From positions 37,615-101,614 of the forward strand of contig JAHDYR010000041.1 in assembly GCA_019828565.1 (NCBI GenBank): a stretch of 64,000 bases of DNA, in the 5' to 3' direction. The translations under genes were made by a program, and so were the position numbers. A model generated the notes under the pieces. That model saw only the letters and a list, made by a program, of their open reading frames with translations. It made no database searches and was not told the DNA's origin. This DNA comes from Carpediemonas membranifera BICM. Lineage: Eukaryota > Protista > Fornicata. How positions within the stretch are numbered: the first letter of the stretch is position 1; each line of letters starts with the position of its first letter. Positions 417-61,505 of this stretch are shown here, in pieces.

Positions 417-2456
417 ATGAGCAGTTTAGGGTCGAGGACCTCCCAGTTATCCGTCCTCACGCCGAAAGTCCGGAGGGGCAGCAGCTCCCGTCCGACGACT
501 CCTTGTTCTCGACCCGCCGGAGGCGAGCGTATACGACCAGTGGACCGCCCCGTCCACTCCGGACCTCACACGGGTGCGCCGGGAGCTCTTTCTACCGTCT
601 GTAGAAAGCGACGATGATGACACGTTCATCGTGCCAGAGCCTGAGGGCGACGACGTCGATATGGAGTGGAACCCCGGTTACACATCCGACGAGGTTTGGG
701 AGAAATATCAGAGAAAACCAGAGAATCTACGCAAAAACAGTGGAGTACCATCAGAGAACTACTAGACAGCTACCTGATCAAGGAAGGAAACGCCCGGACC
801 TTACTACTGCGCAGAAGTGACGACTTTTCCGAAAAGTCCTTCGGCGCAAGCTCCACAGCCCGCAAGGAAGTACTAACCAACGTCAGAAGGATCCTCACAG
901 CCTCAGGAGTGACCGACAACAGGGACACCATCCTCAGACATCCGAACGGCATCCACGGGCTTCGCGACCTCTTCATCATGGTCACAGAGGCCCTAGACCC
1001 CAGAGAAGCAGAGATTCAGCGCATCGCCAGCTCTAACGAGCCCACATCAGTGAGACCAGGGCACAAGGACATGGCCAGATGGCCCAAGGAGCAGTCCATC
1101 GAACAAGCAGTCCTGCAACCCAGAGGCCAGAACCCCATTCAGTGGGACAACGTCAGAGACAGCGTCGAAAACAGAGAGACTGGCATGTACTCGGTCATCA
1201 CAGGGACAGCAGAGGATGAAGCCCCCGAGTGCCTCAGCGGCGAGCAAGTGTGGGACCCGTCCAACAGAGGACCCATCACCAGAGTAGCCATAGAGCAAGA
1301 GGATGGCACCTTCAGAGTTCTACTGGACCTGGAAGACACGGAGGCATGGCCCATCACCAGGTACATGGAAGAGGCAAGAGACATCCTGAGACTGCAGGCA
1401 CCATAGGCACCAGTGGTGTGGCAAGCGGCATGGAATAGCTCAGGAGTAGACACCAGCGGCCGTAGCGGTATCCGGAAGCGAGGGGAAGAGACGCCGCTCA
1501 GTGGCAAGCCGCAGTTTGCAGTAGTCAGAGCCGAAATCATCGGAGCAGAGATCAGCCGTGACAAGAGAGCCGAACATGCCTCCCAGGAGGACAGGTCTGC
1601 TAGCACGGACATCGACAGCGACGTAGAGATGACGAGGCCGGACAGTATCTGTGGTAGCCAAGCCCCGGCAACCCCAGCGTCTCAGAGGATGAACAGAGTC
1701 AGCGCCAACAAGAGAACCACAAGGACCCCCAAGCGGCTGGTGCTGGGGGCGAGGCATCAGGCAAGCGTACTCAGCTTCCTATAGACAGTGCGAACAGAGA
1801 CAAGGAGGTGCCGCCGAGGATTAGCCTGGAAGACATCGTCCAAGAGCATATCAGAGATCAGCAGGAGGCCAGAAGGATGGCGGGCGAAGGGAGGAGCCAG
1901 CCCGAGGTCAGCAGCCTGCCTGTCACAGAGACCCAGCCGAGTCAGACTAGTCCTAGCAGCGATCGACTTCGAGTGTGGCTACACAGGCAGCTCAAGACAA
2001 GGCACACCAGCGATCCCAGTCGAAGGAGGCATTGTCCTGATAGATGTGGACAGCAGTGAAGTGGTCAGCCACGGTATGTTCTACCAGGACATGCCGCTCA
2101 ACAGAGTCGAGCAGTCAAGGCACACATCATGGGCCGTCACAGGCCTACCACCAGCGACCTTCGTAGATATAGCGACAGGCAGACCCCCCAGAGACCTGGA
2201 GCAGCACGTCCACACCTTCCAGGCGTGGGGCGACCGTCTAGCGACGGAGCTCAAAGCGTATGAGAGAAGAGAAGGCTGCAGAGTCCACCTGTTCGCCAAG
2301 GGAAAGCACATGGAGATGTTCCACCTCACGGATGCAGTGAACGGCTTAGCCGCAGAGAGCAGAGAGTACTTCGCGCAGAGACTAGTGGACGAGAACGAGC
2401 TGCCAACGCTGCTGGTCAGGGCTAGACCCGACCTCGACCAGAGATTCAGAGTCAAT
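417..2456 (+). pseudogene. Disrupted ORF1 of a non-LTR retrotransposon (diverged relative of 55892-57951), including the N-terminal part of a Maelstrom-like DEDDh domain
   Basis: 666-1406 aligns by eye with 55892+ (QKQWSTIRELLDSYL/QKEWDTIRELLTDYL; EEARDILRLQAP/EEGRDILRLQAP). TAG at 1404 where the other copy has GAG. 1788-2456 has IDFECG..PVEGG..WAVTGLPP..AKGKHME. Similarity stops near 2456. Confidence 0.85.
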
Positions 2457-2557
2457 TTCAGCCCAAGGCAAGGTTACTCGCAAAGCCTGCCGGCATGCGT
2501 CCTTACGCCCCATTTTCTCAACGTATTAAATACCGAAAGAGGATAGAAATGACTCGG

Positions 2558-27223: not shown

Positions 27224-27602
27224 ACTCGGCCTCCTCCTCGGCCCCGTCGCGGTCCATCATCGGCGGCACCTGGACGATGGTGGCACGCTCGTTATCCATA
27301 GCAATGACTGCGCTCTTCATCTGATCGCTGATGATGGTCTTATCGACTGAAACCTGCGCAGCACTCGTTTTCTCCTCCTTGTTCCCGTACTGCTCGTAAT
27401 CAGACACAAATCCGAAGCTATCAGACTCATAACTGTCATATGCATCAGACTCGTCGCTCATTTCCCTTCCAAAGCTCCAAACCGACAGACCTCTGTCCGT
27501 CGCACCAATCAAGCTATACATACCTCATGTAACAAAGTAAATTAAGCCTGCTAGCCTTTGCAACACCCTCTCAGTCGATCCCACACTCAAGCTGCTGGGG
27601 CC
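27224..27602. repeat. Local ~380-bp duplication of 24955-25333
   Basis: Near-identical sequence with very few substitutions. Confidence 0.95.
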
Positions 27603-27657
27603 AGGCCGCCGTTGGGATCCGGCTAGATCATCCAAGCTGGCAGGAACCGCTAATTTA

Positions 27658-35235: not shown

Positions 35236-35343
35236 TGTCGCAATACCGTATTAATATTTATATATTGTATGGGTGTCGTCTTGGTCCTACTTGGTCCGAG
35301 ACGACACCAGTGTGTCGAAATAAATTAGCGCATCGTTACAACA
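35236..35343 (+). repeat. Element B 5' LTR
   Basis: tgtcgcaatacc..ttacaaca; identical to 60756-60863. Confidence 0.95.
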
Positions 35344-35363: not shown

Positions 35364-38300
35364 ATGTTCGGTAATATTTCTCTGCCGACTCTGAGCGTTG
35401 AGACATTGACTAGCGAAACCTGGCGCTCATCTAAGAGGGATGCCGCCCGAATCAAGGCGTTGTATCCCGCCGCCAAGCTGGCTGTCCTCCTCCCCAATGA
35501 CCTGCAGGACATCATCGAGGACACTCTCAACGTAGACCTGGCGAAGGCAAATGACGACAAGATTGACGAATACGTCAGCAAGTTCCTTGCTCCGGTGGAC
35601 AAATTGTCCCTTGTCAAAGAGCTCGAGGCCTTCACCTGCCAGGTATCTGAAAAAAGAATCACCTCCATTCGCGCGTACGTCAGCGCGTTCTCAGCAGTTT
35701 TCTCTAAGGCCGAAGACATCGAAGAGTCCGACTCGGACGAGGACGAAGAGGAACAAGAAGAGGACGAAGAAGACATTTCCCCCTTTGAGAAGAACGCGCG
35801 TAAGATCTTCCTTCAGGGGATCCGCCCATCCACTTTCCGCAAGGTCCTGGACTTTGAACTCAAGGAGCATCCTAAGAGGAAGTCACTTGCCGATGCATAC
35901 GAGCTGAGCATTGCCCTCGCTCAAGAAGATGACGACGCTCGGGCTAAGGCCATTCGCTTTGGTCACTACCAGGCCGGAAAGTCCTCCACCCGAAAGAAAG
36001 GAACGGCCGCAGGAGGCCAACCGCCTCGCCTCCCGGTCCCGGGCGCAGTTGCCTCAGGGGCCCCGGAGAATTCTTCCACTCTCGAAAAGAAAGAAAGAAA
36101 GAAATTTATGGTGCTTGGATTCTGACCCCGGACTGAGCTTGTTTCCCGTTGTCTTGGAGCTGAGTGCCCCGGGGTACTGCCTATTTCCCGTGGCAAACTG
36201 GTCAGCAGCGTTTGCCTTGGGCTTTCGGTGCTACTGTCTCCGCGGAAAGCCGATTCCAATCGCCCCAGAGGCCCTGCGGCCATCTCCGTGCAAATATGCT
36301 TTCCTGTCTCCCTGAAAGTCCGGCAACTATCCGGGGAGCCTGGGGGTCTGTCCTCGGTGCTTCCACAGGCAGGATCGTCCTGCAGAACCTTGGGTGGCGT
36401 GGGTCAGGGCATGGGTGGTGTACCCCCAGGCACTAGGCCTGGTTGTCCTGTTACCCCTTACAACATTTCGCTTGCACTACATGTCCTTGGTTTCCCATGT
36501 CGTTAACAAGGGCGGCAGGGGCACCAAGTCTTCCACTCTCAAGCCGAACGACGTCAACCCAGCTTTGAAGCCTCCACATCGTGCCTGTGGCAAGTGCGGC
36601 GGATGGCATTGGGATAATCAGTGCCCCAATGGGGCCCCAATGCGCTCTCGCCAAGAAGGAGGCGGCCTCCGGTCCAACCCGAAGAAGAAGGAGCCAATCG
36701 AGGCTAATCTCCTGGACACGGACCCGATGAGCCACTCAAAGTGTCTGGTCGTATAAACGACCAAGAGTATTCCTTTATTATTGACACTGGAGCACCAAAA
36801 TCTATCATCTCCGCTGCGTCAGCAGAGGCCCTTGGCCTACAGACAGTGACCGGCCCGACCCTCCGCTTCAGAATGGCGAACGGTTCCATTTCGACAACTA
36901 ACCACTATACTGAGGCCTGGTTACACCTCACGCTGGCGGGAGCCCCAACGCGGTTTAAGGCGAAGTTCGCAATCTTCAGTGGGGACCGCGAGAAAATCCT
37001 TATTGGCACCGACATTCTTCGTGTACTCGGGCTTCTCACGAAGGATTCCTTATTCCTCCAGCTCGTAGCCGAAAATCTGAGCAAGGAGGACGGGGACGAC
37101 ATTCCGCTGAGTTTGAACCAGTTAGACGTCTCGGAGGACGTTGGTGCTGTTGAAATTCCCGAATCCGCGAGCGCCACGCTCCGAAGCGAGGTACGAGCGC
37201 TACTTGCTGAGTATTCCACGTTGTTCGGCCCCATTCCGGCTCAAGGAGCCAAGGTTGAACCTATGCGGATCCGATTGAATGACCCGGACGCCCTGGTCCA
37301 GGAACGAGCCCGGAGACTATCAGGGGAACGACGCCTTCAGGTGCGGGAAGAAGTAACCCGCCTACGCCACCTTGGCATCACCAGGAACAGCGTCGGACCG
37401 TTCTCCTCCCCGATCGTGGTAGTGGATAAGAAGAACGGCGCCATACGCCTCTGTGTGGACTACAAAGCTCAACACCCTCACCATTCGTGACCATTTTCCC
37501 CTTCCCGACTTGAAAACCTTCGTGCAGGAGGCGGCGGGGGCTCAATTCTTCGCCAGCTTGGACTTGACGTCCGGGTACCATCAGATGCCCCTCCTCGAGG
37601 AAGACAGAACTATGACGGCGTTTGTAACACCTGACGACTACGAGGAGTTCAACCGAGTCCCATTCGGGCTGACTAACGCTCCGAGTTATTTCCAGCGTAC
37701 CATGCAATCCATCCTCGCCCCGGTACTCCACCGGGGGGTGCTGGTCTATATTGACGACATCTTAGTCTACGCCCAATCTGAGGAGGAACTTATAGCACGC
37801 TTAGAGCAAACCTTCCAGTTGCTGACAAAGTATGACCTTCGGCTTAGCCCGGCAAAATGTGTGATCGGCGCGGAGGAGTTAGACATCGTGGGCTTCCACC
37901 TTTCCCGCGAGGGGAAGAGCATCGACAAGCGACGGATTGAAGCACTCACGTCGATAGAGGCTCCGAGCAATGTTTCAGGGGTCAGAACACTCTTAGGGAT
38001 GTTTAATTACGTGATCGACTTCATCCCAGCCGCGGCGGACCTTGTGGACCCCCTCTATGAGCTGATCAGGAACGCCGGTGAGCCATTCGTATGGGGACCA
38101 CGCCAAGAGGAAGCCCTCGTGGCCCTGAGAGAGGCGGTAGCCCAAGAGACCGTCCTGGATCAGCCTGATCCCAGCCTGCCATGGGACGTTTACACTGACG
38201 CAAGCGACCGGGGGCTTGGGGCCGTAATCACCAGGGAGAGGGCGCGAATCGCCGCCTGGTCGCCTTCGTTTCGAAATTATTTAACGCGACGCAGAGGCGC

Positions 38301-40243: not shown

Positions 40244-40908
40244 GGGGTGGATGAAGACCAACAGGCCTGTACTAGAATAGATAGAACAGTGCCCCATCGA
40301 GCTCAAAAGGAGCGACTATGGCCCCTGTCCAACGAACCAGAAGGTTACATTCAGGGTGCACCGCCGGTTATGAGTGGGAGCTCCATAGCCACAGGGACTA
40401 GAGAACGAACAATATGGAGCTTAGATTTACAGGGAAAGAGACGGAGAGCGCAGGGAAGGATGTCGGAGCATCGATGGAATGGAATTTTCGCCAGCTCAGA
40501 GGGAAGGAAGGATCACCGGCGAACAACAGCAGGGGGCCCAGATAGAGGCCGCGAACACACTACGAATGGCGTAACAACGGCCAAAAATCCAGGGACGGTG
40601 TGGCATGAAAATGGCGATGCATTTTTAGAACCGCGCCATTCCGCCGCGAGCCCCAAAACAAACGATCAGGGAAAAATGAGAAAACAGGGAGGTCCGTGCG
40701 GGGACAGTACCTGCGCAGGGCCATGCTGACCGATTTTCGCGTCGATGCATTTGCCAAGCTTTTTTCATGCAGGGAAAAGAGAACAACCAGATGAGAGTGG
40801 AGATACCAGATAAGATCAGGGAATCCGCTCAAAAAGAGTGGGACACGATTAGAGAGCTACTAACGGACTACTTGATGGAAGAGAAGGGCACCAGAACGCT
40901 ACTACTGC
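40244..40908 (+). mobile_element. 5' region of the non-LTR element, cut by an element A LTR
   Basis: About 40327-40908 is near-identical to about 55454-56033. Confidence 0.92.
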
Positions 40909-41029
40909 TGTCGTGGGTCTTACCCAATATTTACATAGTTGTATTATTTACATCGTCTTCAGGTTTCTGTCGACACATTTGGTGTCGTCTCTTTTCCCTG
41001 TAAAGCTTTCTTGTCCCTAACGGACTACA
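40909..41029 (+). repeat. Element A LTR 1
   Basis: tgtcgtggg..ggactaca. Confidence 0.95.
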
Positions 41030-46281: not shown

Positions 46282-46931
46282 TGCTCGTTCGTCACTTCCC
46301 GTTTTCACTGAGAAAACAACAACTCGAAAGAAGTAGCAACCAACCTCAATGGAACCTGAAAGACACTGTTTTACGGCTAATTCAAGCCCGATTGATGTTA
46401 TTAAGGATGAACGCGGCCTTTTGCAGCCGCGAGAGAGAACGTCGCACCGTCGAGAGCAAAAAACGCGAGAACTCGCGAACGAAGCCGAATTGAGGCTTCT
46501 AATGACGTTTTTCGATCTCTATGTAATAAGGACGGCGACGTGAAGTACATACCAAGAGAAACACAAAGATCATCACAGTGAGCAGTTTTAGGCGCTCATT
46601 TGATCTAATCAATATTCAAACGGCCGTTTTACGACCGTGGAGGGGCGGAATGCCTCACGTAAGATCATTCTAATTACACAGCGCGCTAACAAGTGGTACC
46701 ACGATAGGATTTTGAGATCCGCAGATATTTTCCGAATCTTTCAGATTCACCCCGCTAATTCTGGCTCCCGACTTGAACAAGGCATTCACCCTGTACCCTG
46801 CCATGGTACAGAGTCTCGTAGACCAATGAGTGGCATCGGAGGTCTCGGGACTGGTCAAGTCCCTCATCGCACATTCGTTCGAGTGGCATACGCCTGAGGC
46901 CATGGCCCCTTTGGGGTCCATGGAGGGGCGG

Positions 46932-47052
46932 TGTCGTGGGTCTTACCCAATATTTACATAGTTGTATTATTTACATCGTCTTCAGGTTTCTGTCGACACA
47001 TTTGGTGTCGTCTCTTTTCCCTGTAAAGCTTTCTTGTCCCTAACGGACTACA
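46932..47052 (+). repeat. Element A shared middle LTR
   Basis: Identical to 40909-41029; preceded by the PPT. Confidence 0.95.
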
Positions 47053-47070
47053 TTTCTAGAAATTCAAGCC

Positions 47071-50000
47071 ATGAACGATAAGAAACGCCTTATACCTCCT
47101 CTACTAACGGTTCCGTCAGTTGAGGCTCTCATCACTTTCGCCGAGGCCTTCCGCGACTATCGCGCTTACGGAGGCCATCGGGATATCTCAGACTTGATTG
47201 ATAGCTCGGTACAAGACCTCATTGCCACGATCCTATCCACTACGCAGGACGAAGACGACGATCACACTCCCCTAGTAGCCTCAAGGAAGAACATCCGCGA
47301 TCTGAAGGATCAGAGAACTCTCAAGCGGCTCGGACAAGCCCTGCAACCCAGAACCAAGACCTCACGCCTCCAGCTGTTCCGTCTAAGAGCCAACAGCTTC
47401 GACACGGTACAGGTCGCACGCGTCAATCGGAAGTTCACTCTCCTCTTGTCCCTGTTCGATGGGAAGTCCCTCAACGAGGACAACCTCAAGGAGGCGTATA
47501 CGCGTGCCTTTAAGAGCAACCCCAAGGCCATGTACCGCATCCAAGAGCTCATCGAGGACCAGCCTCTGGAAAAGGCTATGCCCGCCGTCCTAGCCCTAGC
47601 ACGTGAAGTCCAAGAGTCACGGGATCTACTAAGCGCTTTCGAAGACGCTCCCTCTCGTCAACCCTACACGTCCCGCCATGACCGCAGACACGACTCGTCT
47701 GTGATCCCGAAGAAGCCCTCGTCCGATAACCGGTCGGCTGAAACCAACAAGGGCCACAAGGCAATCAAGAAGGAGAAGCCGGCAAAGGACTACTCTAACT
47801 ACACCTGCTATAACTGCGGTGGCAAGGGTCACTCGGTGTTCAAGTGTAAGAAGCCCAAGCACACATGTAAGAAGTGTGGTCGTGTCGGCCACCTGGAGGA
47901 TTACTGTAAATCCTCCAAGTGCGTGTGTGTTTTAAGTTCCAAGGAGTCACCGGCCGAGGGCGAACCGTCAAAGACTAAGGGCGAGACCGAGACTAAGCCA
48001 TCTGTTCCCTTGATCAAAGTCCAGATTAATGGTCACAACCTCACTGCTCTACTTGATTCAGGTGCCGGAGTCACGATCATCAAGAGCACGTGGGCGTCCA
48101 AGCTGACAAAAGTTAGCTCCGAGGTTATTCCGATCCGTACCGCCAACAAGGGTATTCTTCACGCGCAAGGCGCTGTTGAAGGCGACGTAAGACTGCTAGC
48201 GTCAGCGTTTACACCCAAGGCGTGCTCCTACAAGCCACGTATGCTGCTACTTGACACTGAGTTCGACATGATTATCGGATATCCAGACATGGTAGCACTG
48301 GGAATCCTTCCCCAAGCCTACACAGACGAGCAAGATGATGACGAGATCGAGATTCCGGACGTGTACAAGTATCAGGCACCATTGTTTTCTTTGTCGCAGA
48401 CCAGCATCGACCGGCAGGCCGAGCTAATCAGACGTTATAGCGACGTGTTCGAGGACCGTAGCGAACCCAGCCGCCTCGAGCCGTATGACCTCATCCTACG
48501 CGAGGACCGAGTGGTCAACGCCAGACCATACTTCGTCCCACCAGCCAAGGTCGACATAATACGGGAGCACATCGACGAGCTGTCCTTGAAGGGGTTTATC
48601 GAGAGAAGCAACTCACCGTACGCATCCCCGGCCATGACGGTGCCGAAGAAGGGCGGGAAGTCGCGCTTCGTCGTGGATTTCCGGCAGATCAACGAGATCA
48701 CCCCCACTTTCGACTACCCGATCCCAATGATCGACGAGGTGATCGCCCAACTACCCAACAAGAAGATCTTCGCCACACTAGACCTGTCGTCGGGTTATCA
48801 CCAGGTCGAACTGACCAAACGCTGCCGCAAGTACACTGCGTTCACCACCATTCTAGGTCAATATCAATACACTAGGATGCCCTTCGGGCTAAGGAACGCA
48901 GGAGCTCACTTTCAGCGTGCCATGGAGTCGGCTTTCGCCGAACTGGTTGGTCACGCCTGTTATATCTATATCGACGATATCATTGTCTTCGGGGAAAACG
49001 AGGAGGATTACCTCAAGAACCTGGAGAGCGTGCTGCAGCGTACTAGACAGATCAAGTTACAACTCAACCGTGACAAGTGCCAGTTTTCGAGGGCCGAGGT
49101 CGAGTTCCTGGGCAGGGTCATATCCCATGGCTGTCAACGCATCGCAGCGGACCGCATTCAAGACATCCTGGATCTCGAAATGCCTAAGTCGGTCAAGGGA
49201 ATGCAAGCGCTCGTCGGATTTCTTAACTATTTCCGGGATCATGTCCCTGGTTTCGCAGAAGTAGTACACCCCTTAACTCAAGCGATGGCCTCCAAGATCC
49301 CGCTGGGTGGCGACGAGCAAGAGCAAGCCCTACGCAAAGTCAAGACACTCCTCGCCCAAGCAGAAGCACTCGCCATCTTCGATGCGTCCAAGGAACACAC
49401 CATCATGACCGACGCGTCAGGAGTTGGCTACGGCGCTGTGCTATTGCAGGAAGGCCAACCCGTGTGCTTTATGAGCAAGGCCTTTGACCAAGTGCAATCG
49501 CGATGGTCGGTCGGAGAGAAGGAGGCATTCGCCATCGTCGCCGCCATTAAGCGATGGAACAAGTACCTCTCCTGGGGAAAGTTCACCCTTCTCACGGACC
49601 ATCGCAACCTGATTTACATGTACAAGTCGACTAACGCCAAGGTCCGCAGATGGGCTGAGGCTATGTCCGACATGGACTTCGACGTCAAGCACGTCGCTGG
49701 CCTTGATAACGGTGGGGCAGACGGCTTATCGCGAGTGTACGTTATGCAGTCCGCATCAGAAGATGACGTTGAAGCAGAACACCTCACCGCCGGGGCCCAC
49801 CTCTCCCGACGTGTAGTTACTGAACGACTCAAGGACCAAGGCAAGTCAGTATCACGTGAGACTGTCAGCAAGGTCATCGAAAACTGCCCGGTGTGCCAGG
49901 TGATTAGACGCCCTCCGGTTGACAGCCCGTCAGGATTGCACACAGCCGTAGATCGCCCGTTCCGTAGGGTGGCAGTTGACACGATGGGGCCTTTCCCCTC

Positions 50001-51021
50001 CGTCGACGGCAAGGCTTACATCACAGTCATGATCGACATGTGCAGTCGGTGGACTGAGCTAGTCGCATCTTCGAGTACCACCGGCGCGGCAGCAGCGGAC
50101 GCCCTGGTCAACAACTGGATATTGCGTTTCGGGTGCCCTGAGGTTCTCCAATCCGACGGAGGACCAGAGTTCAAGAACCAACTCTTCAAGCGCATCGCAG
50201 ATGAGATGGGGTTCAAGATCCATATTACCACGGCTCACCACCCGCAATCCAATGGGATGGTAGAGCGCGCCAACCAGCAAGTATTACGCATCCTCAAGGC
50301 GCGTAAGTTTCAGCTCAGAGGGTCAACCTGGATCGAGAATCTACCTGTCGCCCAGTTCATCGTTAATTCATCCCCGCGCACGTCTACACGCCTGTCACCA
50401 GCCGAGATAGTTCTCGGGTACGACCTGAGAATACCACAGAACGTGTATGTGACTGATTCTAGTACAGCGAGCGCGAGTGAGTCTCACAGGGAAGCGGCCG
50501 CAGCGGCTGTCCAACTCGCCAGCAGCCGAGTCCAGGCGATGAGAGAGGACGCCCTCGCAAAGGCTACTGCCTCGAGGAATGAGATTATTAGCAGGTTCGT
50601 CCTAGTCAAGTACCCCTCTAGACCACCGAACAAGTTGTCACCTGGATGGAGAGGGCCAATGCGAAGGCTCGCCGGAGTGAAACAACACGGTGTCGTTGTC
50701 GCGTATAAGGTTTTAGACCTAGCTGAGAAGGACAACTCGAAAGCGATCACGGTAGACGCATCGAGAGTTCGGAAGTTCAATCCCGGCAGGCTGACAGAAG
50801 ATCAGATCAAAGCACTCGCAGCCACGGCTGACGACGAGTGGGAAGTTGAGCGAATCAGTCGATCTCGAGGTCGAGGCCCGATGTCCAAGCGGGAATACCT
50901 CGTCCATTGGGCTGGGTGCGAAGACGAAGAGGCTACGTGGCAAGACTATTCGTCAGTCAAGGACCTAGAGGCGCTAGACATATTCCTGAAGTCAGACGAG
51001 GCCAAGCGAGCCGGTCTGTAA
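47071..51021 (+). CDS. Element A intact single-ORF Gag-Pol (2 CCHC, protease, RT, RNase H, integrase, chromodomain)
   Basis: 1316 aa; LLDSGA, YIDD, TDAS, HHCC, DDE, EWEVERI..EYLVHWAG..ATW. Confidence 0.98.
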   Translation: MNDKKRLIPPLLTVPSVEALITFAEAFRDYRAYGGHRDISDLIDSSVQDLIATILSTTQDEDDDHTPLVASRKNIRDLKDQRTLKRLGQALQPRTKTSRLQLFRLRANSFDTVQVARVNRKFTLLLSLFDGKSLNEDNLKEAYTRAFKSNPKAMYRIQELIEDQPLEKAMPAVLALAREVQESRDLLSAFEDAPSRQPYTSRHDRRHDSSVIPKKPSSDNRSAETNKGHKAIKKEKPAKDYSNYTCYNCGGKGHSVFKCKKPKHTCKKCGRVGHLEDYCKSSKCVCVLSSKESPAEGEPSKTKGETETKPSVPLIKVQINGHNLTALLDSGAGVTIIKSTWASKLTKVSSEVIPIRTANKGILHAQGAVEGDVRLLASAFTPKACSYKPRMLLLDTEFDMIIGYPDMVALGILPQAYTDEQDDDEIEIPDVYKYQAPLFSLSQTSIDRQAELIRRYSDVFEDRSEPSRLEPYDLILREDRVVNARPYFVPPAKVDIIREHIDELSLKGFIERSNSPYASPAMTVPKKGGKSRFVVDFRQINEITPTFDYPIPMIDEVIAQLPNKKIFATLDLSSGYHQVELTKRCRKYTAFTTILGQYQYTRMPFGLRNAGAHFQRAMESAFAELVGHACYIYIDDIIVFGENEEDYLKNLESVLQRTRQIKLQLNRDKCQFSRAEVEFLGRVISHGCQRIAADRIQDILDLEMPKSVKGMQALVGFLNYFRDHVPGFAEVVHPLTQAMASKIPLGGDEQEQALRKVKTLLAQAEALAIFDASKEHTIMTDASGVGYGAVLLQEGQPVCFMSKAFDQVQSRWSVGEKEAFAIVAAIKRWNKYLSWGKFTLLTDHRNLIYMYKSTNAKVRRWAEAMSDMDFDVKHVAGLDNGGADGLSRVYVMQSASEDDVEAEHLTAGAHLSRRVVTERLKDQGKSVSRETVSKVIENCPVCQVIRRPPVDSPSGLHTAVDRPFRRVAVDTMGPFPSVDGKAYITVMIDMCSRWTELVASSSTTGAAAADALVNNWILRFGCPEVLQSDGGPEFKNQLFKRIADEMGFKIHITTAHHPQSNGMVERANQQVLRILKARKFQLRGSTWIENLPVAQFIVNSSPRTSTRLSPAEIVLGYDLRIPQNVYVTDSSTASASESHREAAAAAVQLASSRVQAMREDALAKATASRNEIISRFVLVKYPSRPPNKLSPGWRGPMRRLAGVKQHGVVVAYKVLDLAEKDNSKAITVDASRVRKFNPGRLTEDQIKALAATADDEWEVERISRSRGRGPMSKREYLVHWAGCEDEEATWQDYSSVKDLEALDIFLKSDEAKRAGL

Positions 51022-51054: not shown

Positions 51055-52302
51055 TCACTCCAAAACACCCCCGCTGAGAGCACCGTTCGCGTCCTCAGAC
51101 CGGGTACAATAGCGAACTAGCTCGGGATGAGCAGCAAAGAACTTGACCCCAGCCTGACTATCACGGATTGCCTCGGTTGCCAGGATAATCGAGCTGTACT
51201 CGCGTCGAGCATAGTGCACGAGCAGACGCAGGGAATTCTCATGCAGATGGTGGCCAACGATTGCCTCAAGCACATACACACGACGTGGCTCGTTATGATC
51301 GAGCGCGACGGGCAGGACGTCATTGCTGGGGACATCGAACAGGAAGTTGTCCATCAAAGAGTGGCGCACATGACCGAAACCAGTGGGGGTCCGGATTGCT
51401 TCAATGTATTGGCGGCTGAACTCTCGCACGTCAGCAGCGTCTAGGATGCCCTGCGCATGGCCCACGACCATCATGTCATACAGGTCTGGGTCATTACCTA
51501 ACATTATGGCGCGGCGCAGATGAGGGGTCATGACGGTGTAACCACGCCCCGAGAGAAGCTGAATACGCTCGCGCAAACCCTGATGACAGAGCGTACGCGA
51601 GGTCGCGTCGAGGCGGCAGAGGTGCAAAGCCACCAGATCCTGATCGGTGGGATCGCCAGGCCGACCACACATAGCCCGAGTGTGGTACTCGCGCGATAGC
51701 GCCAGCAACACGAGACCATCGCGACAGATGTCACGCGCAACGGAAGAAGAGTTCTCCGTTGCGGCGAGATGCCCATATGAGTTGAGCATCCCGGCGCGGA
51801 GCGCCCGCAAGGTACCAGACATGTCTAGAGTGATGTAACTCACGCCCTCTGCGGCAACAGCGGTGATCATCTCCTCCAGAGAGAAGAGCGGCGAGACCTC
51901 GGTTTCCTCACTCCCCGACCCCGAGTCGCCGTGACCCGTCGGCCGGGATTCATCATCGCTACGAGCGGTCTCGGCCTCGCACGAGTCACCACGGTTCTCA
52001 CGTGGAGAGCCAGCATCACAACTCACCGTCTCAGCCTCCTCCGGGCTTTCGTCACCGCCCGGCGTCGGCGAACGCACACAAGAAGTGACCGGAGCACTCG
52101 TAACGCTCTCAGTAGAGGTGTCCCGGATAGATGTCACGTTTGTAGGAGCAGGTGCGCTGAACAAAGCGTGGTAGTCGCTGGCTGAGTTGAAAAAACGGGC
52201 ACGATCGAGATAGCGGTTCAAGAAGCGTTTGAAGGCCTTTCGGGCTTTCTCCTCATCAAATAGCGCCAGCATCTGCGTAATCTGCTCACGTACGTCGGAC
52301 AT
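51055..52302 (-). CDS. Element A antisense ORF, copy 2
   Basis: Same protein as copy 1 with one T/A difference. Confidence 0.75.
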   Translation of the reverse strand: MSDVREQITQMLALFDEEKARKAFKRFLNRYLDRARFFNSASDYHALFSAPAPTNVTSIRDTSTESVTSAPVTSCVRSPTPGGDESPEEAETVSCDAGSPRENRGDSCEAETARSDDESRPTGHGDSGSGSEETEVSPLFSLEEMITAVAAEGVSYITLDMSGTLRALRAGMLNSYGHLAATENSSSVARDICRDGLVLLALSREYHTRAMCGRPGDPTDQDLVALHLCRLDATSRTLCHQGLRERIQLLSGRGYTVMTPHLRRAIMLGNDPDLYDMMVVGHAQGILDAADVREFSRQYIEAIRTPTGFGHVRHSLMDNFLFDVPSNDVLPVALDHNEPRRVYVLEAIVGHHLHENSLRLLVHYARREYSSIILATEAIRDSQAGVKFFAAHPELVRYCTRSEDANGALSGGVLE

Positions 52303-52953
52303 TGCTCGTTCGTCACTTCCCGTTTTCACTGAGAAAACAACAACTCGAAAGAAGTAGCAACCAACCTCAATGGAACCTGAAAGACACTGTTTTACGGCTA
52401 ATTCAAGCCCGATTGATGTTATTAGGGATGAACGCGGCCTTTTGCAGCCGCGAGAGAGAACGTCGCACCGTCGAGAGCAAAAAACGCGAGAACTCGCGAA
52501 CGAAGCCGAATTGAGGCTTCTAATGACGTTTTTCGATCTCTATGTAATAAGGACGGCGACGTGAAGTACATACCAAGAGAAACACAAAGATCATCACAGT
52601 GAGCAGTTTTAGGCGCTCATTTGATCTAATCAATATTCAAACGGCCGTTTTACGACCGTGGAGGGGCGGAATGCCTCACGTAAGATCATTCTAATTACAC
52701 AGCGCGCTAACAAGTGGTACCACGATAGGATTTTTGAGATCCGCAGATATTTTCCGAATCTTTCAGATTCACCCCGCTAATTCTGGCTCCCGACTTGAAC
52801 AAGGCATTCACCCTGTACCCTGCCATGGTACAGAGTCTCGTAGACCAATGAGTGGCATCGGAGGTCTCGGGACTGGTCAAGTCCCTCATCGCACATTCGT
52901 TCGAGTGGCATACGCCTGAGGCCATGGCCCCTTTGGGGTCCATGGAGGGGCGG

Positions 52954-53074
52954 TGTCGTGGGTCTTACCCAATATTTACATAGTTGTATTATTTACATCG
53001 TCTTCAGGTTTCTGTCGACACATTTGGTGTCGTCTCTTTTCCCTGTAAAGCTTTCTTGTCCCTAACGGACTACA
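52954..53074 (+). repeat. Element A LTR 3
   Basis: Identical to LTRs 1 and 2. Confidence 0.95.
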
Positions 53075-55453
53075 CCTAAGCGGGAGTTGGTGCGGCAGGA
53101 AGTCCGCCGGTTGAAGCGGGAAGGTATTATCCGAGACTGCCGTGGGCCGTGGGCAAGCCCAATAGTGGTCGCCACGAAGAAGGATGGGGCTATTCGACTC
53201 TGTGTGGACCTCACTGCGGTCAACAACGTAACCAAGCCGGACCGGTTCCCGCTGCCGGACCTACGGTCCTTCGTCCACGAGGCCGCAGGTGCTGAGTGGT
53301 TCAGCAGTATGGACCTCACTTCAGGGTACCATCAGATGAAGGTCCGGCCCGAAGACGTTTTCAAGACGGGGTTCGTCACCCCCGACGACTATTGCGAGTT
53401 TGTTCGCACGCCGTTCGGCTTGAGGAATGCTCCTGCGGTGTTCCAGCGGGAGATGCAGCGCAGCCTGGCACCAGTCTTGCACAAGGGCGCTTGCGTGTAC
53501 ATCGACGATATTCTGAACTATGCCCGGACGGCAGAGGAATACCTTGCTACACTCCGGACGGTCTTCGAGTGTTTGAGAGCGGCCAGACTAAGGCTGGCAC
53601 CCAAGAAGTGCACGTTCGGAGCCAAGAGCGTGGAAGTGGTCGGGTTCGTCATTGACGGAACCGGCAGTCGCGTGTCGGAGTCGAGGATTGCCTCGCTCAG
53701 GGCCCTAGCTAGGCCCGACAACATGACAGATCTCCGCGGCATCATTGGAAAATTCAACTATCTGGCAAGGTTCATACCGGACTGCCAGAGGGTCCTCGCC
53801 CCGCTCTACGAGATCAAGGATATGGGGCAGTGGACCGACGAGCACGACGGCATAGTACGCGAGCTCGCAGAGACGGTAGCGAACGCAGCGGCGCTTGTGT
53901 TCCCCGACCTGACAAAGCCGTGGCAGCTATACACTGATGCTTCTGACGAGGGCATCGGCGGGGTCCTGCTTCAGGGTGACCCAGGGGAAGAACAGGTAGT
54001 TGCCTTTTTCAGCAAGAAGTTCTCGGCAGTTCAAGGGCGGTGGTCGACGTATGACAAGGAACTATACGCCATTGTACACTGCGTGACACAGCCCGACCTC
54101 GCCCCGCTGTTCAAGCTACACCCAGACCTCACTGTGTGTTCCGACCACAAGAACCTACTATTCCTTCACAAGCGGAAGGACCTCAGCGCCAAGCTCGAGA
54201 GGTGGAGGATTATCCTGGGCGAGTATCCGTTCAGGCTGCGGCATGTAGCCGGGAAGGACAACGTAGTAGCGGATGCCCTATCCCGACTGCCGATGGAGAC
54301 AAACTTACTCGACCGGCAACAGATTCCTGACGACGCTCGTGCATTACTAGAGTCTCTACATGGGGGCAGTGCGGGCCACGTTCCATTGGCAGCAATGCAG
54401 GACCGGGCGGGTGATCGATGGGAGGAGATTAGACCCTTCACTCGCCAGTGGGTCGAAGAGTGCCCCATATGCCAGAAGGCACGGGAACCGGGGCGTACGA
54501 GAGTCCCCTGGCACTCCACGCAGCACAGGCAGCCATTCGAGGTGGTGCAGCTTGATACTATCGGGCCCCTCCCCCAATCACCGCACGGCAACCAGTACGT
54601 TGTCGTAGTCATTGATGCGTTCTCGAAGTACGTGGACGTCTACCCGGTGAAGAGCACCGACGCCCAGGGGGCGGCCGAGGTGGTTGCCCGCGTGTGTGGT
54701 CGATGGGGAGTACCACAGACGATCCAGACTGACCAAGGCTCGCAGTTCCGAAATGAACTCGTCAACCAAGTCACGACTCGACTGACCCTCAACCATCGAT
54801 TCTCCACCGCATATCATCCTGCTAGTAATGGCATAGTGGAGAGAGCCAATGGCACGTTGGTCCGAGCTCTACGCAAGCTGTTGTTGGAGGCGGAAGACGA
54901 CCAGTGGGAGCACTGGCTCCCCGGTCGCGCAGCTGGTGATTAACAGCGCGCCACACAGCACGCTAGGGGGCATGAGCCCACTCCAATGCCTCTTCGGCAT
55001 CTCACCCGCCGTTCTTAAGTCGGCCGAGCAGTTGGCACCGATGGCGGAGGCTGTCGGGGCCCCGGCGGATCTGGCAGAGTGGGCACGGGCTCGGCAGGGC
55101 TTCAGAGCGGCAGCGGAACAAGCGGTGGGTGAGTATGAACGCCGCCAGGCTGCGAAACAGCCGGCTGAGTCTCAGTCTAAGGTACGGACTGGCGACCTCT
55201 ATTTTGTGAGGTGGGCAACGAGACAGACGAAGTTGACTGCTAAGGCCCGTGGACCGATGCAGGCCGTCGGGCAAGGGGAAAGCCCGAACACCTGGCGCAT
55301 GAAGGACTTAATCTCGCACAAGGTGGTACTGATCCATGAGGAACGGATAAGCGTGGCTAAGGTCTCGATGGAGCAAGCGGTGCGCTTAGCGGCACGGGAT
55401 CATCAGGAATTCGTTGTCGAAAGGATCGTAGGCCACAAGCTCGGTAGTAGGAG
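53075..55453 (+). mobile_element. Ty3/gypsy element F pol fragment (RT, RNase H, integrase, start of chromodomain), related to B
   Basis: YIDD, YTDAS, QTDQG..ERAN, EFVVERIVGHK; truncated at both ends. Confidence 0.94.
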
Positions 55454-55891
55454 GTCCAACGAACCAGAAGGTTACATTCAGGGTGCACCGCCGGTTATGA
55501 GTGGGAGCTCCATAGCCACAGGGACTAGAGAACGAACAATATGGAGCTTAGATTTACAGGGAAAGAGACGGAGAGCGCAGGGAAGGATGTCGGAGCATCG
55601 ATGGAATGGAATTTTCGCCAGCTCAGAGGGAAGGAAGGATCACCGGCGAACAACAGCAGGGGCCCAGATAGAGGCCGCGAACACACTACGAATGGCGTAA
55701 CAACGGCCAAAATCCAGGGACGGTGTGGCATGAAAATGGCGATGCATTTTTAGAACCGCGCCATTCCGCCGCGAGCCCCAAAACAAACGATCAGGGAAAA
55801 ATGAGAAAACAGGGAGGTCCGTGCGGGGACAGTACCTGCGCAGGGCCATGCTGACCGATTTTCGCGTCGATGCATTTGCCAAGCTTTTTTC

Positions 55892-57951
55892 ATGCAGGGA
55901 AAAGAGAACAACCAGATGAGAGTGGAGATACCAGATAAGATCAGGGAATCCGCTCAAAAAGAGTGGGACACGATTAGAGAGCTACTAACGGACTACTTGA
56001 TGGAAGAGAAGGGCACCAGAACGCTACTACTGCGTCGCGCAGAAGATTTTTCAGGGAGATCGTTCGGAGCTAGCTCCAGAGCACGAAAAGAGGTGATACT
56101 GAATGCGAGGAGAGTGCTACGTGCCGCAGGGATCACCAACAACAGAGACGAGATCCTCCGTAACCCCAACGGAATCCTAGGGCTTCGAGACATCTTCTAC
56201 GCAATGACAGAGGCCTTAGACCCGAGAGAGGACGAAGAACGGCGCCTAGCAGAGGCCAAGGAGAACGTCACCATCCAACCAGGGCACAGGGACATGAGCA
56301 AGTGGCCTTCCGACCACAAGATCGAAGAGGCCATCCTCCAACCGAGAGAACAGAGCAACATCGAGTGGGACAGTGAGAGAGACAGCATTGAGGGCAGAGA
56401 GACGGGCACATTCACGCTCACATCAGGGTATGGAGATGAGAAAGCCGTCGAGGCAATCGCAGGAGAGGAGGTGTGGGACCCCACTAACCAGGGCCTGGTC
56501 ACCAGGATCGCTATGGAGCAGGACGATGGCACCTACAAGGTCCTCATCGACATCAGAGATTGCAGAGCATGGCAGATCACCAGATTCATGGAGGAAGGCA
56601 GGGACATCCTCAGGTTGCAGGCCCCGGAGGCGCCGGCGGTCTGGCAGGCAGCTTGGTGCAAGACAGGAGTCAACACGGAGGGCAGAGGCGCAATAAGGGC
56701 ACAAGGACAGGAGACGCCGCTCAGCAACAAGCTCGTCTTCTCTGACGTCAGGGCCAGGGTGATCAATGCCACCAGCCGCCGCCAAAAGAGGGACAGGGAA
56801 GAAGAGTCAGACAACGAGAGCGGCGCACAGACCAGCCAAGAGGAAGACCCCAAACCCAAGGTCGTGTTGACACAAGCGGAAGGAGTGAGCGCCAGAAGGG
56901 GCCTTGGAGCCGAGCTTGATCAGCAGGAAGAAGAGAGCATACCCCGAGCATCAGAGGGAAGTGCATCAGCAGGGAGCCTACCGGAGGCATTGCAGAGTCA
57001 GGGTCAGAAGAAGCTCATCCTCGGTTCTATCGACTTCGAGTGTGGAGATCCTGGGAGTGAGAGGGCAGGGATCAGTGCGGTGCCGACAGAGGGGGGCTCG
57101 TGCTAGTGGACGTCGAGACGGGGGAGGTCGTTGGCCATGGCCACGGCCTCTTCTATGAGCCCAACCTGCCGGCCAACAAGGTGGACCAGAGCAGATACGC
57201 GACGTGGGCAGTGACGGGGATTCCCCCAGCGACGTTCGTGGAAGTGGACACAGGGGAGGTGCCGATGGACTATCAGCAGCACTTCAGCAGATTTAGAGAG
57301 TGGGCCACGCGGCTCGCAGCCAAGCTGAGAGACAGAGAGACCAGGGAGAACTGGAAGCTAGTCCTTCATGCCAAGGGCGTCCACATGGAGAAGTTCCTCC
57401 TGACGAACGAGGTCAACGGGCTCAACAGGGACACCAGGGACTTCTTTAGAATGAGGCTGGTGGACGATAGCGAGCTGGCCGACGCCATCGAGGAGCTCGC
57501 CCCGGATAAGGCAAGAGAGTACAGGGCAAACTACGAGATCAAGAACTACAGGGAGATGGCAGATATATGGGCCAGCCAATGGCAGCGCAGGGAGCTCACG
57601 AAGGGGGCCTGTCCGTACCACAGGCACACTGCAGGGTGCTACCATTGTGCGCTGGCAGATGCAACGTTGTTCGCGGCGAAGGTGTGGGGCATGATGCTGA
57701 AGAAGATGAGCACGCCGGATCTGGAGAGTGCGATGGGTAACGCTTTCAACAGCATGTATGACACGGTCAGGGACGCAGGGGTATTCTTTGAGAGTGATAG
57801 TGACAGTTGTGAGTTCTTTTCTTTTAATCCAACCCTGGCTCCCACCCAGGGTCCGGCATTAGCTGAAATGCACTGCCGGTGGGCTGTGGCGGCAGCCAAA
57901 GGGGGGGTCACGCCAATGCGCCCCCTCCTAAGTATCCCTGCCCGAAGGTAA
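55892..57951 (+). CDS. Non-LTR ORF1: unknown N-terminal domain plus Maelstrom-like DEDDh nuclease (one indel in the G run near 57095)
   Basis: IDFEC..PTEGG..VTGIPP..HAKGVHME..CPYH..HCALAD; the copy near 2020 reads through this junction in frame. Confidence 0.82.
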
Positions 57952-58085
57952 GGATGGTCACCAGGGTAACCCATAGTTGGCCCGCCATGGGTAACCGGAG
58001 CCGGCACGAAGGCCCCGTGACGGGACAAGGGCAGATTGCAGGGAATTTCCGAAAATTCGCAGGATAGGAAAGACGGAGTACAAGA

Positions 58086-59681
58086 ATGGAAACGATCAAG
58101 ATAGCGAGCCTGAACACTGAGGGACACATCGGGAAGGGAAAGGACTTCACGGCCTCAATGGCAACGGCTATAAGGATGAAACTGAGCGACACAGATGCAG
58201 TATGCATCCAAGAAACGTGGAGGACGGCGAATACGAGGGTACACAACTTCATAGACTTCGACTACGCAATGGCAGGGAAGGAAACAGAGGAGGAGCTAGC
58301 TATGGACAACGAGAGGAGGAAGAAAGAAGCCCAAAGCCAGCGCCGAATAGATGCCCAGCTGGGCATAGCAGGGAGCAGTAGCCGGACGCCCAGGACGAGG
58401 GGTACTAGAGAAGGAGTGGGCACAATCATCAACCCAAGAGCAAGAGGGAGCTGGGACGTAGGCATCACAGATAGCTTATCAGGGAGGATACAGGTGAGCA
58501 TACTCAGAACCCATAGGGACATCCTGGTGATCAACGTGTATGGCCCACCGGTCGGCCACGGAAGGGAGGAGAAGGACGAGTTCAGGGACGGAATAAGGAG
58601 CATTCTGGAGATGAAAGGAGAGATGGAAACAATCATCATAGGGGACTGGAACCTCGACCCCAAAAGGATAGCCACAATGGCAAGATGGAAGGACCTGATC
58701 AGGGACTATAAGCTGGGAGCAGTGATCCCCATGGAAGGTACCCTCACCAAGGGAACTACCACTCCGGACTTCGCGCTGGTATCATCAGGGATCAGAGGAG
58801 CAAGGATAGAAGTACTGGATGCTAGTCGACTCGGAGTCTGGGGGTCAGCCCACAACATGATAAGACTGGAATGGAGGGAACAACGGATCCAACGGACTAC
58901 AAAGAGAGAGGAAGTCCTAGACATACCGGGCGTCAGAGTGTGGAACATGAGGAAGAAGGCTGAACGCACATCAGTCAGAAGACTGCACCGTTTTAAGAGC
59001 CTGGATGAGTGGGAGGAGGATATCAGGAAGGATATGGGCGAGCCGTCAGGTCACCCAGGCAGTGGAGACAGGGAAGAGGTCATCAAAGAAAAGGTGTGGT
59101 CGGAACTCCGGCACACACCATGGACAGAAGAGGGAAACAAGACCAGAAGTGAGATCATGAAGCGTGAGCTACAGGCCTTCTGGGGAAAACGCAGGGAAGA
59201 GTGGATCCAGGACCTCAGCCGGAGCGCGAAGGAAGGATACAAAGCATCCAGGTCCATGGTGGAAGCAGCGGTAAGAAGATGGTGGTGTGAAAACCAGTTC
59301 AAGGGCATGCCAGAGAGCATACTGAAGGACGGGAAGATTACCACCAACAAGGAAGAAATAGGTAAGATCCTCCTACAACAGTATGCAGGAGTGAGCAGGG
59401 GCAGGGAACCGGAGTGGAAGGATAGAGGCAATGGAAAGAGGGAGGACGAATTTAAGGAGAGAGAAATACGAGAAGCGATCAGAAGGACAAAGAGGGACAC
59501 TGCACCGGGACCGGACCACACTACAGGGGACATGCTCAGGGACACAGATGACCAGGGGATCGCTCAGATAACTAGGCTCATGAACAGGGTATACAGGGAG
59601 GGCAAGATCCCGACAACATGGAAGTATGTAATCCAGGGAAGAGTGGGATCAAGGAGAGATACAGGGAACTGGGAGAGATGA
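58086..59681 (+). pseudogene. Non-LTR ORF2: APE endonuclease and pre-RT region, truncated
   Basis: SLN, IQET, NVYGP, GDWN, PDF, SAH (usually SDH); APGPD..IPTTWK, then no RT motifs. Confidence 0.92.
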
Positions 59682-60640
59682 TGACCGGGGATGGAAAGGA
59701 CGAGGGCGAGAGCAGGGCAAGGGCTAGAACACGGGAGAGGGCAGGGCCAGGGACAGAGGAAACCCATCAATTGGATGGTTGCACCACTCACGGTGAACCT
59801 AAGGAAACTGCAGGGACTGAGCATGGGATGCGGGGGGACATGACGTCCCCGCCGCCCTTGTGAACGATAGAGGGACGCTGGGAAGTGTAGCACAAGAGAA
59901 CTATCATAAGGGGTACTAGGCCTTGCGGATCTAGAGTCCGTGTTAGCCCTAGCCCACGCCGCCTAACAGGGGTAGATGAGAGGGACTTAGTTGCTTTCCC
60001 CGCCCACGGGTAGGCCACTTAACAGGGTCGTGGGGGCACTGAACAGGGAATCTGGAAAGAGGAGAGGGTGCCATGCTTGAACGACCCCGTAGGGACTGCA
60101 GGGAATCAGGGAGTGCTATAGAGAAGGTCTTGCAGGACAAACCTGCCTGTGGAAGCACCGAGGACAGACCCCCAGGCTCCCTGGAAGCTGCCGGGTTTAC
60201 AGGGAGACAGGAAAGCGCTCAGCGCACGGAGATGGCGAAGGCCTATGGGGGGAAGTGAAATCGGGAGTGAGCGGAAGCAGTAGCACCGAATCGCTCGTTG
60301 GACGCAGCTGACAAGTTCAATCGCAGGGAGGAGGCAGCGCCCCGGGGAACTCGGCTCCAGTAATAAGGGAGATCAGCCTAAGTAACCGGGGCCCGATACC
60401 AGGCACCATAAATTTTCTTTCTTTCTTTCTCGTTGCGATCATCTTCCCCGTTCACTCTTTCGCCATCGACTCGTGTTTCGGCCACCACACGAAGTACTCA
60501 GACCTCAGACAGGAGGTGGAGGTAGGCCGCTGCAAGGGCATATCGAGTACACCCTTCCCATTTTTTTTCGTCCTTCGCCTCCTCCTTCTTTTCGACTCAT
60601 CGCTGGGTCGTGCAGGTTAAGACCCATTCAGTGAAAAATA

Positions 60641-60670
60641 TGGTGACTCCGGGGGTCGAACCCGGTTCCC
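60641..60670 (-). other. tRNA 3'-half-like fragment (T arm and acceptor strand)
   Basis: ccggg-ttcgacc-cccgg-agtcacc-a followed by tattttt; no matching 5' half. Confidence 0.5.
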
Positions 60671-60755
60671 TGAAGGAAGATCCTCGACCATCGGATGGGT
60701 TTCTGACACAATTTGCAAAGTGGCTTTAATACTCTCGGTGGGGGGGGAGGGGTAG

Positions 60756-60863
60756 TGTCGCAATACCGTATTAATATTTATATATTGTATGGGTGTCGTC
60801 TTGGTCCTACTTGGTCCGAGACGACACCAGTGTGTCGAAATAAATTAGCGCATCGTTACAACA
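60756..60863 (+). repeat. Element B 3' LTR
   Basis: Identical to 35236-35343; preceded by ggggggggaggggtag. Confidence 0.95.
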
Positions 60864-61428: not shown

Positions 61429-61505
61429 GAAAGAAAGAAATTTACGTTTGCCTGGTATCAGGCCCCGGACTGAGCTTGCTTTCCCATTATCCTGGAGCTG
61501 AGTCC
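61429..61505 (-). mobile_element. Extreme 3' fragment of the (TTTC)n-tailed non-LTR family
   Basis: gaaagaaagaaattta..ccccggactgagcttg..ctggagctgagt matches about 36094-36165. Confidence 0.85.

Follow-up and report, generated by a model that had tools for sequence, protein, structure and literature searches.

A predicted Maelstrom-like DEDDh nuclease in ORF1 of a non-LTR retrotransposon family of Carpediemonas membranifera

The protein encoded by the first open reading frame (ORF1) of long interspersed elements (LINEs), retrotransposons without long terminal repeats (LTRs), packages the RNA of the element. We analysed 64,000 nucleotides of the anaerobic protist Carpediemonas membranifera BICM (contig JAHDYR010000041.1; this whole stretch is called the window, and positions are counted from its first letter), in which a damaged LINE extends from 55454 to ~60430 on the forward strand. 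It belongs to a two-ORF family with an APE-type endonuclease and a reverse transcriptase (RT), and ORF1 of this family carries a predicted nuclease resembling Maelstrom (MAEL). The known ORF1 types of LINEs are thereby extended by one whose predicted enzyme belongs to a class otherwise known from the host-side silencing of transposons and from arenaviruses.

Published accounts recognise five types (I-V) of LINE ORF1, none of which includes a nuclease in the part of the classification at hand (PMC4120745). A viral helicase with weak silencing-suppressor activity has been captured in ORF2 of TRAS and in ORF1 of Jockey (PMC5563155). The family described here shares with such elements the two-ORF APE-RT layout and the capture of an enzyme in ORF1 (in the known cases an esterase or the viral helicase). 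It differs from them in its ORF1 of 840-1250 aa in the intact relatives, with an apparent C-terminal coiled coil (the C-termini of the homologues P0025 and P0026 are coiled-coil-like, with weak matches) and no detected helicase; RRM, CCHC knuckle, PHD and esterase domains had no Pfam match in the ORF1 sequences scanned, although a remote RRM is possible in the low-confidence parts.

An earlier reading of the window from sequence alone (hereafter the sequence-only reading) had proposed that this ORF1 is unlike those of known LINEs. This holds with respect to the five types, but DEDD nucleases have been reported in other classes of transposon. A DEDDy nuclease forms ORF3 of LTR retrotransposons of bdelloid rotifers and of Athena/Terminon elements (PMC5408684), and DEDDh nucleases are mentioned for the P and piggyBac DNA transposons (PMC3627910). 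The rotifer enzyme, as far as its description goes, is likewise a DEDD nuclease borne by a retroelement, occurs in a DEED variant and in Vesta2 and Vesta5 has a Cys-His-Cys motif; however, it is DEDDy and RNase D-like and is encoded by a separate downstream ORF3 in LTR or Penelope-like hosts, whereas the LINE domain is DEDDh and MAEL-like and lies inside ORF1. The P and piggyBac enzymes, set beside it from their description only, are also transposon-encoded DEDDh accessory nucleases, but of DNA transposons. The part that is apparently new is a MAEL-like DEDDh domain inside the ORF1 of an APE-LINE. A literature search of titles and the beginnings of abstracts, with Repbase, Dfam and subscription journals outside its range, returned no MAEL-like or DEDDh domain in LINE ORF1. 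We consider this a real and conserved ORF1 architecture of an old protist LINE lineage, apparently undescribed.

The closest described nucleases are MAEL and the arenavirus nucleoprotein (NP). Metazoan MAEL is an inactive RNA binder that has lost the catalytic positions, and Entamoeba MAEL (EHI_192630), which has both motifs, is an Mg/Mn-dependent exoribonuclease; in Bombyx MAEL E137 (on strand 2), C290, H293 and C302 hold the zinc, and the last catalytic site is occupied by R306 (PMC4408791). An EHHCHC set of residues has been described for Maelstrom (PMC2628886). The ECHC zinc site is common to MAEL and arenavirus NP, the latter being a DEDDh enzyme (PMC7968707). In Lassa NP the determinants of activity on double-stranded RNA (dsRNA) are G392, which follows D-x-E, and a basic arm before the catalytic His.

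The two-ORF family and its predicted ORF1 nuclease

The nuclease domain occupies 57011..57783 (+) and is spread over two frames; it is delimited by motifs, models and conservation. The six motifs named in the sequence-only reading, IDFE (57029-57040), PTE (57083-57091), VTGIPP (57211-57228), AKGVHME (57370-57390), CPYH (57610-57621) and HCALAD (57643-57660), all translate as it had stated. The predicted catalytic residues are D and E of IDFE, E of HME, and H and D of HCALAD, and the predicted zinc ligands are E of PTE, C and H of CPYH, and C of the HC pair, all within the domain. The pattern C-x2-H-x8-C-x3-D occurs once in the 127,996 six-frame codons of the window, in the ORF1 nuclease.

A profile search of 1.84 billion representatives yielded 13 proteins (homologues are denoted by P numbers). 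Three of the nine new ORF1 relatives looked up, P0018 and P0019 being left out, are C. membranifera proteins, and the window ORF1 is 98-100% identical to named proteins of this organism. An alignment of 17 rows, seven of which span the whole domain, revealed strong conservation (residues are numbered as in P0007): D426, E428, E445, E544, C618, H621, H629, C630 and D634 are all kept in six of the seven complete domains, and the predicted zinc set (E445, C618, H621 and C630) in all seven. P0005 has Tyr at 426, the first Asp; among the rows that cover just a part of the domain, P0022 carries Leu in place of H629, and the chimeric P0024 retains no more than the first three positions. The catalytic and ECHC residues are conserved down to ~22% domain identity. 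Six sequences of 22-45% identity share 26 invariant nuclease columns, and of the 42 columns that do not vary across five divergent full-length proteins, 29 fall in the nuclease. The sequence-only reading had suggested dN/dS as a check: the value for the N-terminal region of ORF1 is ~0.18 against the divergent window copy at 702-1544, and in the nuclease, compared between the two window copies, synonymous sites are saturated, with pN of 0.27-0.33. On viral contigs there were 63 pattern matches, none related.

Since the two ORFs of the window meet at a break within nested Ty3 elements, it was necessary to rule out that they are adjacent by chance. A scan of metagenome contigs gave four loci (L001-L004) in a second assembly (PPCM01 contigs). 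At L001, L002 and L003 an APE ORF starts ~370-405 nt past the ORF1 stop on the same strand, with 25-32% identity to P0011/P0012 (best E 7e-8, 5e-8 and 3e-18, respectively); L004 stops within ORF1, so that linkage was found at all three loci reaching past it. Locus tags, which give neither strand nor distance, revealed two further cases: P0007 (J8273_4943) adjoins the RT-bearing P0015 (J8273_4944), and P0008 (J8273_5906) adjoins P0016 (J8273_5907), which has the same first 80 aa as the window ORF2. In P0015 a stretch 67% identical to the window linker is followed by RVT_1 (E 1.7e-28; best PDB match L1 ORF2p, 4.5e-18). These are two of the nine named ORF1 loci, among the matches listed. The loci without a tag-adjacent ORF2 weigh little, because the ORF2 search was length-limited (seven representatives of 292-930 aa among the matches listed, six of them named). 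As the APE ORF follows ORF1 at three of three informative loci and an RT-bearing ORF2 adjoins an intact ORF1, the linkage assumed in the sequence-only reading is family-wide.

The APE domain itself was recognised at the N-terminus of the window ORF2 by Pfam PF03372 (E 0.003, under the curated cut-off) and in P0012 by PF14529, above the cut-off; the best PDB match was the L1 endonuclease (E 0.01), and the motifs SLN, QET and NVYxP are kept in all six aligned rows. The two-ORF architecture, the APE linkage in divergent copies, the RT in a neighbouring ORF2, the conservation of the nine positions and purifying selection can all be regarded as shown, with very high confidence. The family is old, its homologues at 22-35% domain identity keeping the layout in the second assembly.

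Structural class of the predicted nuclease

Two AlphaFold2 models were built, one from 5 sequences (pLDDT 72) and one from 17 sequences (nuclease pLDDT mostly 80-90). On these models the domain almost certainly has a DEDDh fold: DEDD-family rows top five structure searches, with ESM Atlas features at 0.90-0.92, and in searches with full-length ORF1 the matches listed were to the nuclease part. The ends of the aligned ranges place D426 and D634 on D12 and D167 of DnaQ, and D426 on D389 of Lassa NP, if there is no gap between. The third acidic position is E544, in the first turn of the helix that follows strand 533-538 (a D-to-E variant), and E445 lies in strand 442-452, a Glu on strand 2 as in the ECHC motif. 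The models and the conserved residues indicate that this fold is very probably of the MAEL/arenavirus ECHC type.

A VIA search of 48,161 chains with the 17-sequence model placed MAEL domains at ranks 1-3 (9nhc, Z 13.1, root mean square deviation (rmsd) 4.0, 209 aligned; 4ybg, 12.3, 3.9, 205; 5af0, 12.3, 3.9, 206), and a further search with this model placed them at ranks 1-5, with a MAEL Z range of 12.3-13.2 overall. Other matches were DinG (12.2), ERI1 (12.0) and the NPs of Lassa virus (10.8) and LCMV (10.6). The MAEL alignments were also the longest, with 203-219 aligned residues versus 147-183. MAEL is favoured as the nearest class, although on Z alone it is tied with DinG and ERI1. The comparison with Maelstrom, Lassa NP and DnaQ structures proposed in the sequence-only reading came out for MAEL in VIA with the 17-sequence model, but not with the 5-sequence model, nor in Foldseek, which favours ERI1/TREX1.

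The likeness to MAEL comprises the DnaQ-like fold, the Glu on strand 2 together with C-x2-H-x8-C, and catalytic residues as in protist MAEL; the spacing of C290-H293-C302-R306 in Bombyx equals that of C618-H621-C630-D634. Columns 461 and 486, tentative counterparts of the other two His in the EHHCHC set, are variable. The differences are that the LINE domain lies in a retrotransposon ORF1 between unrelated domains, with no HMG box detected, has ~10% identity to solved MAEL domains and carries Glu in the second motif. The Pfam Maelstrom profile PF13017 had no match at E up to 10 in any ORF1 sequence scanned, and the arenavirus profile was likewise unmatched; we therefore term the domain MAEL-like rather than Maelstrom. 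The Maelstrom/arenavirus-like DEDDh domain claimed from sequence is supported by the predicted fold, the first place of MAEL in the better model and the preserved ECHC site.

With arenavirus NP the domain shares DEDDh plus ECHC and a His five residues before the last Asp (H528/D533 in Lassa NP), i.e. H-x4-D. Moreover, 4o6h has the highest identity (19%) among the structural rows, and in both cases the nuclease is fused to an RNA-packaging protein, as is presumed for the LINE ORF1. The zinc ligands of Lassa NP are, in the numbering that we take to apply, C506, H509 and C529. In contrast to this likeness, the Z-scores are lower (10.6-10.8), the alignment is shorter, and the dsRNA determinants of Lassa NP are not kept: the residue after D-x-E is Cys, Ser or Gly in the LINE domains, and the 7 residues between H621 and H629 leave no room for a basic arm (K516-R519 in Lassa NP). 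The NP structure 3r3l aligns to residues 419-684 only. An arenavirus NP cluster found in the ESM Atlas at 0.90, among other exonuclease clusters, is a lead only. The modelled nuclease is closer to MAEL than to arenavirus NP in its Z-scores (12.3-13.2 versus 10.6-10.8) and in its Maelstrom-type spacing of zinc ligands.

Possible roles of the nuclease

In the explanation that we prefer, ORF1p would carry a metal-dependent 3'-to-5' RNase of the Maelstrom type (DEDDh with an ECHC zinc site). It would package the element RNA, oligomerise via its C-terminal coiled coil and turn the nuclease on silencing triggers. By breaking down dsRNA, antisense RNA or small silencing RNA, the RNase would defend the element. 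Catalysis on RNA is probable, since Entamoeba MAEL with both motifs is an exoribonuclease. The counter-silencing role is the weakest step and is put forward tentatively, with somewhat more doubt than confidence; we favour it because ORF1p packages RNA, packaging and a dsRNA exonuclease are combined in arenavirus NP, and a suppressor helicase has been acquired by LINE proteins. Taken as a whole, this is the best explanation, and its chances of being correct are about even. If active, the enzyme would allow counter-silencing by a transposon-encoded protein to be studied in a compact case, and it would add a third point of comparison to the kinship of MAEL and arenavirus nucleases.

A more far-reaching and unlikely extension is that the LINE domains represent, within the Maelstrom/arenavirus ECHC clade, a third branch that is mobile and retains catalysis and zinc site, that the element uses its nuclease as a silencing suppressor, and that retroelements were the source or carrier of the domesticated host Maelstrom. 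Were this true, a transposon counter-defence enzyme would have become an anti-transposon factor. The nuclease tree (10 rows, no outgroup) has weak deep nodes and is uninformative on the origin of Maelstrom.

Several observations speak against an RNase of the Maelstrom type acting in counter-silencing. The 5-sequence model puts ERI1 first (Z 10.9, rmsd 3.5, 161 aligned) and MAEL only 7th-8th (Z 9.5; 185 and 176 aligned), with arenavirus NP at 6.9, and in the 17-sequence model the lead of MAEL is within 1 Z of DinG and ~1 Z of ERI1. Foldseek puts ERI1/TREX1 above MAEL with both models, 4ybg appearing at rank 41 with the 5-sequence model and not among the matches listed with the 17-sequence model. 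The second catalytic motif carries Glu where DEDDh enzymes have Asp, and ORF1 had no DEDD-family sequence match in Pfam or in phmmer and hmmsearch runs against the PDB. With regard to linkage, only two of the nine named ORF1 loci have a tag-adjacent ORF2 among the six named ORF2 matches listed, and the PPCM01 contigs of L001-L003 end before the RT. As to the host, Argonaute and Dicer have 0 mentions in the main text of its genome paper (PMC8516963), and both are reported missing in newly sequenced diplomonads.

The strongest alternative, a real if minor possibility, is that the nuclease serves in the maturation of the element RNA, shortening a read-through transcript from its 3' end until it reaches the (CUUU)n tail from which target-primed reverse transcription is primed. 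The tail of the element is a simple repeat rather than poly(A), the near structural matches ERI1, RNase T and REXO2 are 3'-end trimmers, and the same role has been proposed for the DEDDy ORF3 of rotifer retroelements (PMC5408684). Trimming would not require host RNA interference. On the other hand, an enzyme built into an abundant structural protein would seem to exceed the needs of trimming. Other simple-repeat-tailed LINEs, to our knowledge, do without such an ORF1 domain.

It is unlikely that the domain is a MAEL-like RNA-binding module with vestigial catalysis, serving ORF1p as a chaperone in place of an RRM. Metazoan MAEL, an inactive RNA binder, sets a precedent, neither RRM nor CCHC was detected in ORF1, and P0005 and P0022 have Tyr for the first Asp and Leu for the His, respectively. 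However, these two may be decayed copies, and the five catalytic positions that metazoan MAEL has lost are kept in six of seven complete LINE domains despite deep divergence. The enzymes of LINE integration usually reside in ORF2, and we consider it slightly less probable again that this nuclease works in integration and stands in for an RNase H, either by removal of the RNA template or by the trimming of DNA flaps. DEDDh enzymes act on both DNA and RNA, and TREX1, DnaQ and DinG are near-tied structural matches; the characterised ECHC-type enzymes, however, act on RNA, as far as their accounts go. The host lineage has a reduced DNA-processing toolkit (PMC8516963), which would suit an enzyme of this kind. 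Finally, it is very improbable that nested insertion in a transposon-rich region brought together a nuclease gene and an APE ORF that have no relation to each other. Such an artefact might be suspected from the break at 57783 and the nested Ty3 elements around it, but it is largely refuted by L001-L003, all three informative loci of the second assembly, where order, strand and spacer length are the same, the spacer motif is similar and the APE ORFs belong to the same family, as well as by the adjacent tags at two named loci.

The window copy and neighbouring repeats

The sequence-only reading had placed the element at 55892..59681; both ORFs lie inside this range, but the element reaches 55454 on one side and ~60430 on the other. 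The 5' leader (55454..55891, +) starts at a boundary common to a second copy at 40327, with differing upstream flanks (blastn of 55454-56037 against 40327-40913, 99.5% over 587 nt). It is followed by the N-terminal region of ORF1 (55892..56773, +; ~290 aa, 99.8% identical to P0009), to which no family was assigned and for which the ESM Atlas gave no usable match (ORF1 residues 1-290), and by an acidic linker (56774..57010, +). The linker is weakly conserved (19% aa identity between window copies) and predicted to be disordered, the equivalent stretch having pLDDT <50 in the model. Within the nuclease, a G6 run (57091..57096, +) has slipped by one base relative to intact copies, which accounts for the indel suspected near 57095: P0009 and P0010 read PTEGGLVLVD without a break, and tblastn changes frame at 57091/57097 for P0009, P0010, P0003 and P0005. 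The slip may be a mutation or an assembly error.

ORF1 matches P0008 at 99% up to 57783, where the match stops, while P0008 extends 433 aa more. As the near-identical P0008/P0004 run ~430 aa past this point, the window ORF1 lacks ~430 C-terminal codons, and the nuclease, which the sequence-only reading took for the end of ORF1, is central in intact relatives. The truncated ORF1 is joined to an inter-ORF spacer of ~300 nt (57784..58085, +) with a pyrimidine tract followed by a AAAGGGGG motif, found also in the spacers of L001, L002 and L003.

The spacers have in common a G-rich hairpin candidate after the pyrimidine tract (57800-57950 in the window; 5280-5420 in L001, 4680-4815 in L002 and 6335-6450 in L003), the candidates of L001-L003 having a UACG/UCCG loop. 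Such a hairpin might direct ORF2 expression. As a conserved structure, however, it is not supported: pairing holds in 78% of cells, a level also reached by 261 of 500 shuffles, single-sequence z-scores are -0.5 to -1.3, and covariation gives no support. An Rfam scan of 55200-60700 gave three matches, all far under gathering scores, and no ribozyme.

ORF2 (58086..59630, +; its frame ends at 59681) comprises the APE endonuclease and a linker. The APE-type ORF2 of the sequence-only reading is thus present at its N-terminus, but it ceases to match P0015 (67% identity) at 59630, shortly ahead of the RT, which the window copy lacks. The APE domain has a ~30-aa insertion at 58290-58400 relative to its L001-L003 homologues, and one contig of sequencing run X1 skips 202 nt at 58294-58497. 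Contigs of this run span 57629-57780 and parts of ORF2, covering neither the G6 slip nor the 57783 junction. The 3' region (59631..60430, +) ends in a (CTTT)n tail at ~60413-60430 and resembles two short insertions of 3' ends, one at 36084-36528 (-) and one at 61429-61503 (-). The flanks of the main copy are rearranged, and no direct duplication >6 bp was found around it. Lacking the ORF1 C-terminus and the RT, the window copy is dead and cannot transpose unaided; our finding therefore concerns the family and not this copy.

Further copies and fragments of related elements lie elsewhere in the window. A second, divergent ORF1 copy (702..2459, +) belongs to the P0003/P0007 subfamily (87% to P0003); it is broken at both ends and its nuclease is cut before the zinc motif. 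Another copy, from the subfamily to which the main one belongs, is represented by its 5' end (40327..40913, +), which is interrupted by a Ty3/gypsy LTR. A short 3'-end insertion of a related element with a (CTTT)n tail (36084..36528, -) lies between the two copies of a 12-bp direct repeat (36072-36083 and 36529-36540), a duplication characteristic of target-primed insertion.

Beyond the right flank of the LINE, a TGG-initiated stretch resembling a tRNA primer-binding site was read at 60641-60665, which suggests that the LINE sits inside an LTR; the 64-kb window contains no tRNA genes. An identical 108-bp AT-rich segment, possibly a solo LTR, is present at 35236-35343 and 60756-60863, each time in or beside an integrase ORF. 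Two tandem chromodomain Ty3 elements are bounded by very short LTRs of 121 bp (40909-41029, 46932-47052 and 52954-53074), and an intact 1325-aa gag-pol with a chromodomain occupies 47044-51018. Between pol and LTR of these elements lies an antisense ORF of 494 aa (45037-46518 and 51058-52539, both -), which has no Pfam match; over 225 aa it shares 33% identity with the C-terminal half of P0024. Two dispersed repeats of unassigned kind were also noted (6580-7487 and 20406-21325, 95% over 925 nt; 24955-25336 and 27224-27605, 99% over 382 nt). At L003 a DDE_3 transposase fragment (3-383; E 1e-9) lies upstream of the LINE, and a GNAT acetyltransferase-like ORF is found in a repeat-rich stretch of the window at 4871-5635 (+).

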